The notes under the pieces were generated by a model. That model was not told the DNA's origin and ran no database searches. It saw only the letters and a program-made list of their open reading frames with translations. Below, piece by piece: positions 20,402 through 22,467 of a stretch of DNA of 32,000 nucleotides (positions within the stretch are counted from its first letter, which is position 1; each line of letters starts with the position of its first letter). This DNA comes from Candidatus Absconditicoccus praedator (GTDB lineage: Bacteria > Patescibacteriota > Gracilibacteria > Absconditabacterales > Absconditicoccaceae): positions 90,001 through 122,000 of the forward strand of contig NZ_CP054059.1 of assembly GCF_021057185.1 (NCBI RefSeq), given 5' to 3'. The translations under genes were made by a program, and so were the position numbers.

Positions 20402-20713
20402 ATGAAAAATTCTACCATTCATCTTTGTATCTACATTCTTGTGACTCTTACTTACTTTGTTGTGTGGGGATTGTTTTGCGGATTTGTGCTATATGTTTTG
20501 TGGGAATGGTTTTTTGTTCCAATATTTGGTGTCAGTTCTATCTCAATTGGGGAGGCTTGGGGGCTGGTGTTGATTGCCTTCCTTTTCATTACATGCATTA
20601 GTCTCTATAATAAAATTTTAACTTCCTTCTCCTCTGGTTGGAAGTTTGCTAAATTCTTTTTTAGTCCCATTGTTATACTTTTAGTGGGCTTGTTTGTCTA
20701 TCTATTTGTGTGA
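20402..20713 (+). CDS. Small polytopic membrane protein (103 aa); SD-led, TGA-free, apparently TGA-terminated
   Basis: GAGGAGG sits 5 nt before the ATG at 20402 (MKNSTIHLCIYILVTLTYFVVWGLF...). Three to four hydrophobic helices. The ORF ends at TGA 20711-20713 with a terminator 10 nt later. Under table 25 it would run on to the TAA at 20777-20779, through the hairpin. Confidence 0.65.
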   Translation: MKNSTIHLCIYILVTLTYFVVWGLFCGFVLYVLWEWFFVPIFGVSSISIGEAWGLVLIAFLFITCISLYNKILTSFSSGWKFAKFFFSPIVILLVGLFVYLFV

Positions 20714-20722
20714 AATTACAGA

Positions 20723-20752
20723 CCCGTTGCAGGAATCTTTGCAGCGGGTTTT
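20723..20752 (+). terminator. Intrinsic terminator
   Basis: CCCGTTGCA-ggaatctt-TGCAGCGGG (one G-U pair) followed by TTTT. Confidence 0.75.
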
Positions 20753-20984
20753 AATATTATGAAAATTTTTATGAATTAAATGCAATGTGATCGGCAGGTA
20801 TGTCCCGGTTGTCTTTTTTCATTATCAAAAAAATAAGATAGTACACTAAATAGACTTTTTAATAAATTGTGTCTTTGAAATTTCAGATTGTATCTTTGGC
20901 GTAAGCCTAAGTTCTCAAGTTGAATATTTCATAACTACTGGAGGCAAACTTATAGGAGTTCTTCTTTTGAAAATTCAAAAAATA

Positions 20985-21012
20985 TTGACATATTCTATCA
21001 AAAAATTATATT
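20985..21012 (+). promoter_or_regulatory. Sigma70-like promoter for the 21050 ORF
   Basis: TTGACA (20985-20990), 16-nt spacer, TATATT (21007-21012). Confidence 0.45.
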
Positions 21013-21049
21013 AACATTGCCTTTGAAGTCTCAACTTTTGGAGGTGAAT

Positions 21050-21511
21050 ATGAAGGAGCATAGATTAGATATTGCATATGCTATGGTGAGGAATGGTTCT
21101 CATGGAGGGGATGTTGATGACAGGATAGTTTTGTGTCCTCAAGATATCCTAAATGACTACTTCTCAGGAAGTTTCAGAGAACTTAGGAGATTTGTTTTTG
21201 CTGACTTGTATCAGAGAAGGTTTTTTTCAAGTCCGTTTTTTGTTAGGCCTATCAAAAGATACAAAGTAGAATCAGGCACTGTGGACTGTCTTGAGCTCAA
21301 ACGGACGATACCTACAGGGCCTTTGCTGGATGCTGCAGTTTATGCAGTAGGTCTTCATGATGAGCTCCCTGATTTTGAAAAATACCCAATAATTTTGGGT
21401 ATCCATAAAAAGGGATCTAGTATAGTTATCTTTTTGGAGCGTGATCATATTGAGGAGGTTCTTCGCGAGGAGATAGTGGAACTACTACGAAAAAAGAGAA
21501 TATCTAGCTGA
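21050..21511 (+). CDS. Hypothetical soluble protein (153 aa); SD-led, TGA-free, TGA-terminated
   Basis: GGAGG sits 6 nt before the ATG at 21050 (MKEHRLDIAYAMVRNGSHGGDVDD...). Intermediate GC. TGA at 21509-21511 is followed by a terminator hairpin ~20 nt downstream. No family recognised. Confidence 0.6.
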   Translation: MKEHRLDIAYAMVRNGSHGGDVDDRIVLCPQDILNDYFSGSFRELRRFVFADLYQRRFFSSPFFVRPIKRYKVESGTVDCLELKRTIPTGPLLDAAVYAVGLHDELPDFEKYPIILGIHKKGSSIVIFLERDHIEEVLREEIVELLRKKRISS

Positions 21512-21530
21512 TGCAGGTTCAGCTTTAGTA

Positions 21531-21561
21531 GCTCTGGAGGAAGTCCTCTGGAGCTTTTTTT
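21531..21561 (+). terminator. Intrinsic terminator
   Basis: GCTCTGGAGG-aagt-CCTCTGGAGC (10 bp including two G-U pairs) followed by TTTTTTT. Confidence 0.7.
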
Positions 21562-21580
21562 CTTCAAAAAAATTACAACG

Positions 21581-21605
21581 AAAAAAGCCCCGGAAAAACC
21601 GGGGC
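21581..21605 (-). terminator. Intrinsic terminator of dapD (reverse strand)
   Basis: The reverse strand reads GCCCCGG-ttttt-CCGGGGC followed by TTTTTT, beginning ~20 nt after the dapD TGA. Confidence 0.8.
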
Positions 21606-21624
21606 TTTGTGGGAAAAGTGGATT

Positions 21625-22467
21625 TCACGGCCTCAACAGTTCGTTGATGCCGACCTTGGCGCGGGTTTTTTCGTCTGCATACTTGATGATTACCGCGCAG
21701 TAGAGGCTGTGGCTACCATCATCAGCCGGCAGGTTGCCGGGGACTACCACAGCGCCTTCCGGAACTCGTCCGTAGTGGACTTCACCGGTGGTCCGATCAT
21801 AGATCTTCGTGCTCTGGCCGATGTAGACGCCCATGGAGATGACTGCACCGCGGCCGACGATCACTCCTTCGACGATCTCCGAGCGGGCCCCGATGAAACA
21901 CCCATCCTCAATGATGGTCGGATTGGCCTGCAGCGGCTCGAGCACGCCGCCGATACCGACGCCGCCGGAGAGATGGACATTTTTGCCGATCTGGGCGCAG
22001 GAGCCGACAGTGGCCCAGGTATCGACCATAGTGCCCTCGTCAACATAGGCGCCGATGTTTACATAGGAAGGCATCAGCACCACCCCGGGGGCGATGTAGC
22101 TGCCATGGCGTGCAGCTGCTGGTGGCACCACTCGTACGCCGGATTCGCGGAGGGCATTCTCGTCCCAGTCGGCGAACTTCATCGGAACCTTGTCGAAGAA
22201 GTTGGTGACACCGCCGTGCATCAGACGGTTGTCGTGGAGGCGGAAGGAGAGCAGCACCGCCTTCTTCAGCCACTCATTGACCTGCCAACCGTTGCTGCCC
22301 GGCTCGGCGACCCGCGCCTGGCCGCTGTCGAGCTGCCGCAGGGCTTTAGTCACAGCATTGCGGATTTCCGTAAGGGTGTCGTTCGGGTTGAGTTCATCTC
22401 GTCTCTTGAACGCTTCTTCGATGATTTTTCTTGTATTGTCGGAGAAGTTACCAACATCAGCAATCAT
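21625..22467 (-). CDS. dapD: 2,3,4,5-tetrahydropyridine-2,6-dicarboxylate N-succinyltransferase (DapD), proteobacterial type, 280 aa
   Basis: Near-collinear with the E. coli DapD sequence as I recall it: [132 protein letters not shown]. Strongly GC-rich. 31 Gly, none encoded by TGA. The stop codon is TGA. Confidence 0.9.

Follow-up and report, generated by a model that had tools for sequence, protein, structure and literature searches.

Standard-code gene cassettes, one of them carrying a prey-derived dapD, in the recoded chromosome of the predator Candidatus Absconditicoccus praedator

Candidatus Absconditicoccus praedator is a cultured obligate predator of Halorhodospira halophila, whose cytoplasm it consumes (PMC9698310). 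We analysed 32,000 nucleotides of its chromosome (NZ_CP054059.1, positions 90,001 to 122,000; hereafter the window), in which TGA is mostly a glycine codon as in genetic code 25, and found there three open reading frames (ORFs), termed A, B and dapD, that end at a TGA with a hairpin close behind it. On the sequence evidence we regard it as firmly established that these three are standard-code genes and that their TGA is a standard-code stop placed at the true end of each protein.

The code of the surrounding genes is clear. With TGA taken as a stop, the ORFs of at least 100 amino acids in the window amount to 3.6 thousand amino acids (kaa), against 16.4 kaa with TGA as a sense codon, and the genes recovered in the latter case include UvrC, ThrRS, HtpX, a type I restriction-modification (R-M) system, DinB and TopA. 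Translated with TGA as Gly, this TopA matches the NCBI protein of Candidatus Absconditicoccus praedator at 100% identity over its full length. TGA accounts for 322 of the 8330 codons of this backbone (3.9%) and for 68% of its Gly codons, and it occupies the invariant Gly of the Walker A motifs of HsdR and of the KAP protein, of the GIY-YIG motif of UvrC and of methyltransferase motif I of HsdM. The first-pass annotation had called TGA a frequent sense codon in this genome, and these counts bear it out. The G+C content at third codon positions (GC3) of the backbone is 0.21 and the genome G+C content (GC) is 0.27.

Every coordinate given earlier for the ends of ORF A (20402), ORF B (21050) and dapD, and for the hairpins behind them, proved correct (Table 1). 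All three have by sequence the make-up of intrinsic terminators, a G+C-rich hairpin followed by a T-run, 3' of the ORF. It had been suggested that terminators behind terminal TGA codons be compared with those behind internal ones, and within the window a hairpin with a T-run was found no more than 35 nucleotides after three of three cassette TGAs and after none of 321 in-frame backbone TGAs (Fisher test, about 2e-7 by our own calculation). No terminator-like site lies within 35 nucleotides of any of the 18 backbone TAA or TAG stops in the window. Read in code 25, ORF A would gain 22 codons (its next in-frame TAA is at 20777-20779), ORF B 64 and dapD 95; the extension first proposed for A was right, while those for B and dapD (about 57 and 75) were too low. 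The predicted transcripts of the three genes hold no back-up TAA or TAG. ORFs A, B and dapD encode glycine with 7, 9 and 31 GGN codons respectively (47 in total) and contain no internal TGA, which at the Gly usage of the backbone has a chance of 3e-4 for A, 3e-5 for B and 3e-16 for dapD.

If TGA is a true stop, orthologues should end at the same position, as the first-pass annotation had reasoned, and homologues of these proteins do so. The contrary case it had named, an extension conserved at the protein level in relatives, was looked for, and the extensions are not conserved. ORF A, a membrane protein, matches phrog_2169 (E=1.1e-7; residues 3-103 on profile positions 8-103 of 103), a membrane protein of the category 'moron, auxiliary metabolic gene and host takeover', and the profile ends at residue 103, the last before the TGA. 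For ORF B a word-index search gave no homologues, and an exhaustive search gave three representatives among 1.84e9 proteins, all on Absconditabacteria-type contigs. One is the public read-through call of the same gene, with 278 amino acids instead of 153 and Trp at the TGA; the second, from the relative's locus L086, has 148 amino acids and 51% identity and ends at a TAA four residues earlier; the third, from locus L087, is 35% identical and ends ...GFSS-TGA, followed by a hairpin and a T-run. The B homologues contain 34 GGN codons and no TGA, while the backbones of these relatives use TGA for 62-76% of Gly. Judged by these alignments, the TGA marks the C-terminus of the family in A, B and dapD alike, and the code-25 extensions are unconserved. 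Pfam, NCBIfam and PADLOC gave no credible match to A, B or any other small ORF, and an AlphaFold prediction of ORF B from the three-sequence alignment gave no usable model (predicted local distance difference test score, pLDDT, 34). Locus L087 also carries, at 16458-16655 on the minus strand, a second TGA-free cassette led by a Shine-Dalgarno (SD) sequence, with a TTGACT promoter, a TAA stop and a terminator, which encodes a 65-residue Cys-rich protein.

The dapD gene gives the most detailed picture, since its source can be recognised. The protein is an equivalog of TIGR00965, tetrahydrodipicolinate N-succinyltransferase (it scores 464 bits where the curated cut-off is 375, with residues 13-279 aligned to positions 3-269 of 271), with matches to PF14805 (THDPS_N_2) and PF00132 (hexapeptide repeats), and its best named relatives are those of H. 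halophila (88% amino acid identity), H. abdelmalekii and H. halochloris, the identity to Halorhodospira being 88-89%. DapD of the window, those of Halorhodospira and more than 100 other homologues alike end ...GINELLRP, and the predicted Gly read-through product would continue ...LLRPGNPLFPQSPGF... where the terminated one ends ...VGINELLRP. At the DNA level the gene is 83-84% identical to H. halophila SL1 and to a metagenomic Halorhodospira from about codon 15 to exactly the shared TGA. Since the donor has its TGA at the identical codon and the nucleotide homology ends there, the stop codon is a prey inheritance. In the donor, dapD is part of a dapC-dapD-dapE operon, where its TGA overlaps the dapE ATG and no terminator follows; the promoter, SD and terminator of the window cassette did not come from the prey. 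The first approximately 14 codons of the window gene are remodelled and AT-rich.

With a GC of 0.57-0.59, dapD stands apart from a genome of 0.27, and its GC3 falls from 0.88 in the donors to 0.73 in the window, the value in the relative being 0.62. Third-position changes specific to the window copy run 45 from GC to AT against 5 from AT to GC, and in all 68 changes of this copy lie at third positions, with 31 at first or second ones. By these counts the gene is partly ameliorated under purifying selection. Only about 20-25% (approximately 1 in 5) of its GC third positions have changed, and survival of the TGA under neutrality would therefore be no surprise by itself. Very recent acquisition, one of the options raised by the first-pass annotation, is contradicted by this amelioration and by the sharing of the module described below with a species whose TopA is 71-74% identical.

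The window DapD is much nearer to Halorhodospira (88%) than to the relative's copy (76%), and unequal rates or later gene conversion by prey DNA may lie behind this. Where the two predator copies (window 21625-22467 and L086 582-1403) differ, at 64 positions, the window protein agrees with H. halophila at 40 and the relative's at 5; this split may reflect very unequal rates, or gene conversion of the window coding region by prey DNA, perhaps re-introducing the TGA. Independent capture of dapD by two predators was considered and set aside, as the homologous promoter, SD, 3' untranslated region (UTR) and terminator argue for a single origin of the cassette. A search of genome contigs with dapD yielded, among the matches listed, proteobacterial dapD genes and neither Halorhodospira nor Absconditabacteria, and the dapD terminator pattern was not found in the JGI metagenomes. 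Among the DapD homologues, the top three matches, of 392-439 amino acids, were discarded as internally duplicated assembly artefacts rather than read-through forms.

A second codon family separates the cassettes from the backbone. Absconditabacteria are predicted to read CGA and CGG as Trp (PMC8629427), and the backbone of the window contains 10 CGA, no CGG and no CGC codons. CGA is found at codon 190 of ThrRS (3809-5668), the conserved Trp of GAYWRGD, at codons 65, 68 and 390 of HsdM (18381-19826), three conserved Trp (RWxxWA, IWYYE), and at hydrophobic positions of the integrase (1679-2860, codon 193) and DinB (24440-25657, codon 61). These positions support a reassignment of backbone CGA to Trp, which is absent from NCBI table 25, and public translations would then carry Arg where Trp is meant. 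By contrast, dapD has three CGA and three CGG codons, four of which sit at alignment columns occupied by Arg in every one of 80 homologues; of these four, three are newly derived in the window lineage (CGC to CGA twice, CGC to CGG once). Predator tRNAs would put Trp at these invariant Arg, in addition to the read-through tail. The CGA of ORF B aligns with Lys or Arg; A, orf3160 and orf22790 contain neither CGA nor CGG, and orf31452 has one CGG. With the standard reading at UGA and at CGA/CGG, the cassettes follow the standard code at both reassigned codons.

The third difference is in the ribosome-binding signal. None of 18 backbone genes in the window is preceded by an SD sequence, and none was found before the backbone genes of the relatives' loci L085, L087, L088 and L090. 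The 16S 3' tails of two other Absconditabacteria, AATCACCTTTGTACA and GACCACCACCCTAAA, are without CCUCC, and SD sequences are present in just 2-7% of the genes of these two organisms (PMC10783764). No rRNA, tRNA, tmRNA or Rfam family lies within the window. All six cassettes of the window, by contrast, have an SD, a near-consensus TTGACA promoter, a terminator and no internal TGA. Homologue ends, unconserved extensions, CGA and CGG used for Arg, SD sequences and terminators all agree, so that the earlier suggestion of genes written for the standard code is well supported.

These six emerged from a scan for an SD with an ATG behind it that opens an ORF in the standard code, and with a strong hairpin past the ORF. 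The scan yielded the units 3159-3545, A, B, dapD, 22790-23083 and 31452-31655 in the window and five more in the relatives' loci (Table 1). Three of the six window cassettes end in TAA and three in TGA; with the relatives included there are four TGA and seven TAA stops, and cassette GC ranges from 0.33 to 0.59. Ten SD-led cassettes (the second L087 cassette left out) contain 124 GGN codons and no TGA, or 65 GGN without the two dapD copies. The sequence ATTGACAT occurs three times in the window, solely at the promoters of A, B and dapD, and the 15-mer AAAAAATATTGACAT is common to the promoters of B and dapD. No flanking direct or inverted repeats that would hint at an att site or transposon ends were found, the promoter 15-mer being the sole real repeat. 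Between the promoter and the SD of orf31452, 45 nucleotides past the TopA stop, lies a hairpin at 31410-31434 (GCTGGTAGTTTTGCCAGC plus T6), which could be the TopA terminator or a leader attenuator.

Table 1. Cassettes, open reading frames and predicted terminators of the window, with positions numbered from its first nucleotide
Feature	Position	Strand	Promoter and SD	Product, stop and codons	Predicted terminator
Cassette A	20324..20755	+	-35 TTGACA 20324-20329; -10 TATAAA 20346-20351; SD GAGGAGG 20390-20396		
ORF A	20402-20713	+		103 aa; TGA 20711-20713	
ORF A terminator hairpin	20723-20748	+			dG -15.7; tail TTTTAAT; starts 9 nt past TGA
Cassette B	20985..21562	+	-35 TTGACA 20985-20990; -10 TATATT 21007-21012; SD GGAGG 21040-21044		
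ORF B	21050-21511	+		153 aa; TGA 21509-21511	
ORF B terminator hairpin	21530-21555	+			dG -17.1; then T7; 18 nt past TGA
dapD cassette	21578..22531	-	-35 TTGACA 22531-22526; -10 TATAAG 22509-22504; SD GGAGG 22476-22472		
dapD	22467-21625	-		280 aa; TGA = reverse complement of 21625-21627	
dapD terminator hairpin	21608-21584	-			dG -18.3; T6 run to about 21578; 16 nt past TGA
orf22790 cassette (fourth island cassette)	22743..23147	-	-35 TTGACT 23147-23142; -10 TATAAG 23124-23119; SD GGAG		
orf22790	23083-22790	-		97-aa membrane protein; TAA; 7 GGN, 0 TGA	22776-22750
orf3160 cassette	3082..3618	+	-35 TTGACA 3082-3087; -10 TATAAT 3104-3109; SD GGAGG 3148-3152		
orf3160	3159-3545	+		128-aa membrane protein; TAA; 8 GGN, 0 TGA	hairpin 3590-3613 + T-run
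orf31452 cassette	31377..31701	+	-35 TTGACA 31377-31382; SD GGAG		31668-31693 + T-run
orf31452	31452-31655	+		67 aa; GC 0.47; TAA; no TGA	

Part of the set recurs in a related predator. L086 and L091, two independent assemblies from other samples that are 99.9% identical to each other and belong to another species, carry B and then, in convergent orientation, dapD and an orthologue of orf22790 (71% amino acid identity), all SD-led, TGA-free and TAA-ended; cassette A is not in this module. The dapD of L086 has its TAA at exactly the codon that is TGA in the window and in Halorhodospira, and its 3' UTR, terminator, promoter and SD are homologous to those of the window. The neighbours of the module are TGA-rich genes. 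Since the same module is joined to such genes in two independent assemblies, assembly chimerism, which the first-pass annotation had listed among its options, is rejected. Gene order around the module does not match that of the window, and the HsdM proteins next to it are 34% identical. The L091 sample also holds a relative whose TopA is 71% (BLASTP) or 74% (aligned codons) identical to that of the window, and its contig presumably belongs to the same organism as the L091 contig. Against this TopA, with 1.52 synonymous substitutions per synonymous site (dS), the values are 0.31 for orf22790, 0.60 for B and 1.15 for dapD, and the ratios of nonsynonymous to synonymous rates (omega) are 0.58, 0.57 and 0.14 for orf22790, B and dapD. 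Since the flanks are not syntenic and dS is below that of TopA, the module is a mobile unit with its own history. No cassettes were found near TopA in other relatives, including Vampirococcus. Within L086 the promoter and 5' UTR of the orf22790 orthologue (1419-1473 versus 1904-1959) are an 89% duplicate of the dapD promoter, which suggests that promoter modules are copied between cassettes. A native, TGA-containing ornithine/diaminopimelate/arginine decarboxylase (LysA-like) lies approximately 2 kb from the dapD module (L091 1561-2805; L086 3345-3704), a hint that diaminopimelate or lysine metabolism may matter to these predators.

To account for these observations we propose, with about an even chance of being right, that the cassettes are mobile, moron-like standard-code units whose sources are the chromosome of the prey and standard-code elements associated with prey or predator, and that the predator reads their UGA as Gly. 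The proposal builds on the identity of the organism, the two codes, the anatomy of the cassettes, the ends of the homologues, the prey origin of dapD and the mobility of the module, which we take as demonstrated. The units embedded in the recoded chromosome are self-contained, with a sigma-70 promoter, a GGAGG SD, an ATG, an ORF and an intrinsic terminator as predicted parts, and would have been shaped in evolution by translation that uses the standard code and SD sequences. The predator would have imported DNA of its prey and of associated mobile elements and inserted it between backbone genes. Absconditabacteria import host DNA via ComEC/ComEA, and read-through of foreign UGA stops has been proposed for them (PMC8080830). 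At the terminal UGA the predator ribosome would presumably insert Gly; on a terminated mRNA it would then run to the 3' end and form a non-stop complex needing rescue, while on read-through transcripts it would add 22, 64 or 95 residues, and DapD would be misread from Arg to Trp as well. Several observations weigh against this proposal. The B family was seen only on Absconditabacteria-type contigs and is TGA-free throughout three lineages to 35% identity, for which long residence is a better fit than repeated recent import. Searches of INPHARED phages, PLSDB plasmids, IMG/VR and the JGI metagenomes for a source element turned up no relative of A, B, orf22790, orf3160 or orf31452. All recognised cassettes are intact, with promoters, SDs and terminators conserved between species, and a streamlined genome of 1.13 Mb is an unlikely home for much inert DNA. 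The purifying selection on dapD implies that the correct protein is made somewhere.

Such points would be met if the cassettes were kept because a standard-code, SD-using system expresses them, either within cells of the Halorhodospira prey, reached by DNA or RNA through the feeding junction, or by ingested prey ribosomes, tRNAs and release factor 2 (RF2), with the prey-derived dapD and the small membrane proteins acting like phage auxiliary or host-takeover genes. There TGA would stop translation, CGA and CGG would give Arg and GGAGG would work in ribosome binding. We consider this unlikely, though worth serious attention, and slightly less credence is due to its full form, in which prey machinery translates the cassettes, UGA truly ends these genes and no others, and two functional codes coexist in one chromosome. 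TGA, CGA/CGG and SD are three independent translation features that fit the prey and misfit the predator, the published SR1 16S tails being without CCUCC (PMC10783764), and the predator consumes host cytoplasm (PMC9698310). The features persist in the B homologues to 35% identity (dS about 1.5) amid genomes with 62-76% TGA-Gly, in a family seen in Absconditabacteria contexts only; regulatory signals are kept between species, dapD has acquired new CGA and CGG codons at invariant Arg under purifying selection, and the dS of B and orf22790 is below that of TopA. Yet every one of these features is equally expected of recently imported standard-code DNA. The cassette GC3 of 0.28-0.46 is far from the 0.88 of Halorhodospira, the cassettes are missing near TopA in other relatives including Vampirococcus, the window shows no delivery system and there is no precedent from bacterium to bacterium.

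The remaining explanations leave the genes within the predator or question the contig. If the cassettes were native, highly expressed predator genes that avoid UGA and use GC-richer codons for efficiency, the terminal UGA would be Gly and an extension or rescue tag would be tolerated. The consensus strength of all the signals fits such genes, as does the statistically unremarkable retention of TGA in dapD; with four of the six cassettes lacking CGA and three ending in TAA, these are readable correctly by either code. However, most Gly codons of the backbone (68%) are UGA, so that the tRNA for UGA should not be limiting, the composition of dapD is plainly that of the donor and not optimised, CGA and CGG at invariant Arg would yield Trp, two of three B homologues keep a TGA at the protein end and the published Absconditabacteria 16S tails lack an anti-SD (PMC10783764). 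We therefore hold this to be improbable. Termination might instead depend on context, with UGA near an mRNA 3' end or terminator ending translation through ArfB- or tmRNA-type rescue or poor decoding. A terminator follows the UGA by 9-18 nucleotides in all three genes here and also follows it in the L087 B homologue, no back-up TAA or TAG lies inside the predicted transcripts and purifying selection on dapD suggests a usable product. Such a mechanism would leave the absence of internal TGA, the CGA/CGG usage and the SDs unexplained, tmRNA rescue normally destroys the product, and orthologues freely swap TGA for TAA. The four terminal TGAs (A, B, dapD and the L087 B homologue) share no sequence context and their +4 bases are unremarkable, so that context-dependent UGA decoding, another option of the first-pass annotation, has no support in the sequence. 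Work of Campbell in 2013 reportedly found code-25 lineages without RF2. Related Gracilibacteria have also been reported without RF2 (PMC8629427), and we rate context-dependent termination as very improbable. Hardly any weight falls on mis-joining of standard-code DNA to predator contigs by chimeric assembly or contamination. The jump to 57-59% GC at dapD is what such an artefact might produce, but it starts and stops inside an AT-rich frame of promoter, SD and terminator, the first approximately 14 codons are remodelled, the gene is only 83-84% identical to any Halorhodospira, and the same module adjoins TGA-rich genes in two independent assemblies from other samples.

A change of codon meaning tends to be seen as affecting a whole genome at once and cutting its lineage off genetically, whereas here two sharply separated gene classes share one small chromosome. 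If the cassettes were imported, they would show a recoded, DNA-eating predator accumulating transcription units that it cannot read faithfully, which bears on the notion of the 'code as firewall'; if they are kept for a standard-code reader, this bacterium would be the first to hold genes meant to be expressed by a different one. The stable co-culture of the organism makes the question directly testable. There is also a warning for annotation, since code-25 gene calling fuses such ORFs to 64-95 spurious residues, as in ORF B, called with 278 amino acids rather than 153.

Elsewhere in the window, the type I R-M system at 9872-19826 is split by insertions, in the order hsdR, an NYN-domain gene, a KAP-family NTPase, hsdS, two small ORFs and hsdM, and upstream of it lie an insertion sequence-type transposase (7570-8400) and a tyrosine recombinase with a long Lys-rich insertion (1679-2860). 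The region resembles a defence or integration hot spot, and the cassettes cluster there. Short GC-rich intergenic elements at approximately 12890-12905, 13060-13095 and 17040-17060 each contain GGATCC (cggatccc, ggaggatcccggagg and ggggatccc); some lie inside hairpins, and they may be a repeated element or recognition sites in this R-M and defence region. The gap between htpX and hsdR holds a further GC-rich element (9500-9690) with two GGAGG motifs and a mini-ORF starting at ATG 9537, which spans 8 codons if read in the standard code and 31 under code 25, and ends TGA-TAA. A strong terminator follows (GCCGGGG...CCCCGGC plus T7, about 9652-9687); the element, with no match in Rfam, could be another small cassette or a structured RNA.

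The nearest parallel is Vampirococcus lugosii (Moreira et al. 2021, PMC8080830), likewise an Absconditabacteria predator of a phototrophic gammaproteobacterium, with ComEC/ComEA uptake and many genes from horizontal transfer. Against the read-through mistranslation of UGA proposed there, dapD is a concrete prey-derived gene that keeps its UGA stop. Unlike that case, the foreign gene stands here in a conserved frame of promoter, SD and terminator, is under purifying selection, is common to two species and belongs to a whole class of cassettes that includes lineage-restricted families. The code-11-compatible phages predicted for Gracilibacteria and Absconditabacteria (Liu et al. 2023, PMC10746230) likewise have no in-frame TGA and are readable in either code, and these phage genomes mostly avoid TGA stops and stack alternative stops at gene ends. 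Unlike them, the cassettes are single chromosomal genes, three of which end in TGA with the next TAA or TAG 22-95 codons further on, and they have no stacked stops and no phage structural genes nearby, and no viral relatives were found, which sets them outside that phage class. The CGA codons at conserved Trp of the backbone agree with the CGA/CGG-to-Trp reassignment predicted by Shulgina and Eddy in 2021 (PMC8629427), from which the cassettes deviate with CGA and CGG at invariant Arg; two codon meanings in one chromosome are not described there.

Integron gene cassettes were considered and rejected, since each ORF here has its own promoter and the hairpins are short terminators with T-runs and not attC sites; the only tyrosine recombinase is 17 kb away and is a marginal IntI4 match (E=5e-4). 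The morons of phages were reportedly described by Juhala and Hendrix in 2000 as autonomous promoter-gene-terminator units of deviant base composition. The cassettes resemble them in consisting of a single gene with its own sigma-70 promoter and terminator, in their deviant GC and in their variable presence, and ORF A matches a moron PHROG. They differ in that their neighbours are chromosomal and defence genes with no prophage, and in that they depart from their surroundings in code and ribosome-binding signal and not in GC alone. Agrobacterium T-DNA consists of genes carried by a bacterium but built for expression in a target cell. It would serve as an analogy only if the cassettes were expressed in prey, with expression signals and coding conventions matching the victim and not the carrier; unlike T-DNA, they show no border repeats, transfer machinery or evidence of transfer, and the target would be a bacterium. 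The ciliates Condylostoma and Parduczia are said, from the work of Swart and Heaphy in 2016, to have context-dependent stop codons that are sense codons inside the same genes. The likeness lies in one codon having a sense meaning within genes and an end-marking one close to the mRNA 3' terminus. The cassettes, unlike the ciliate genes, are wholly free of internal TGA; this speaks for a different code and not for a reading that depends on position.

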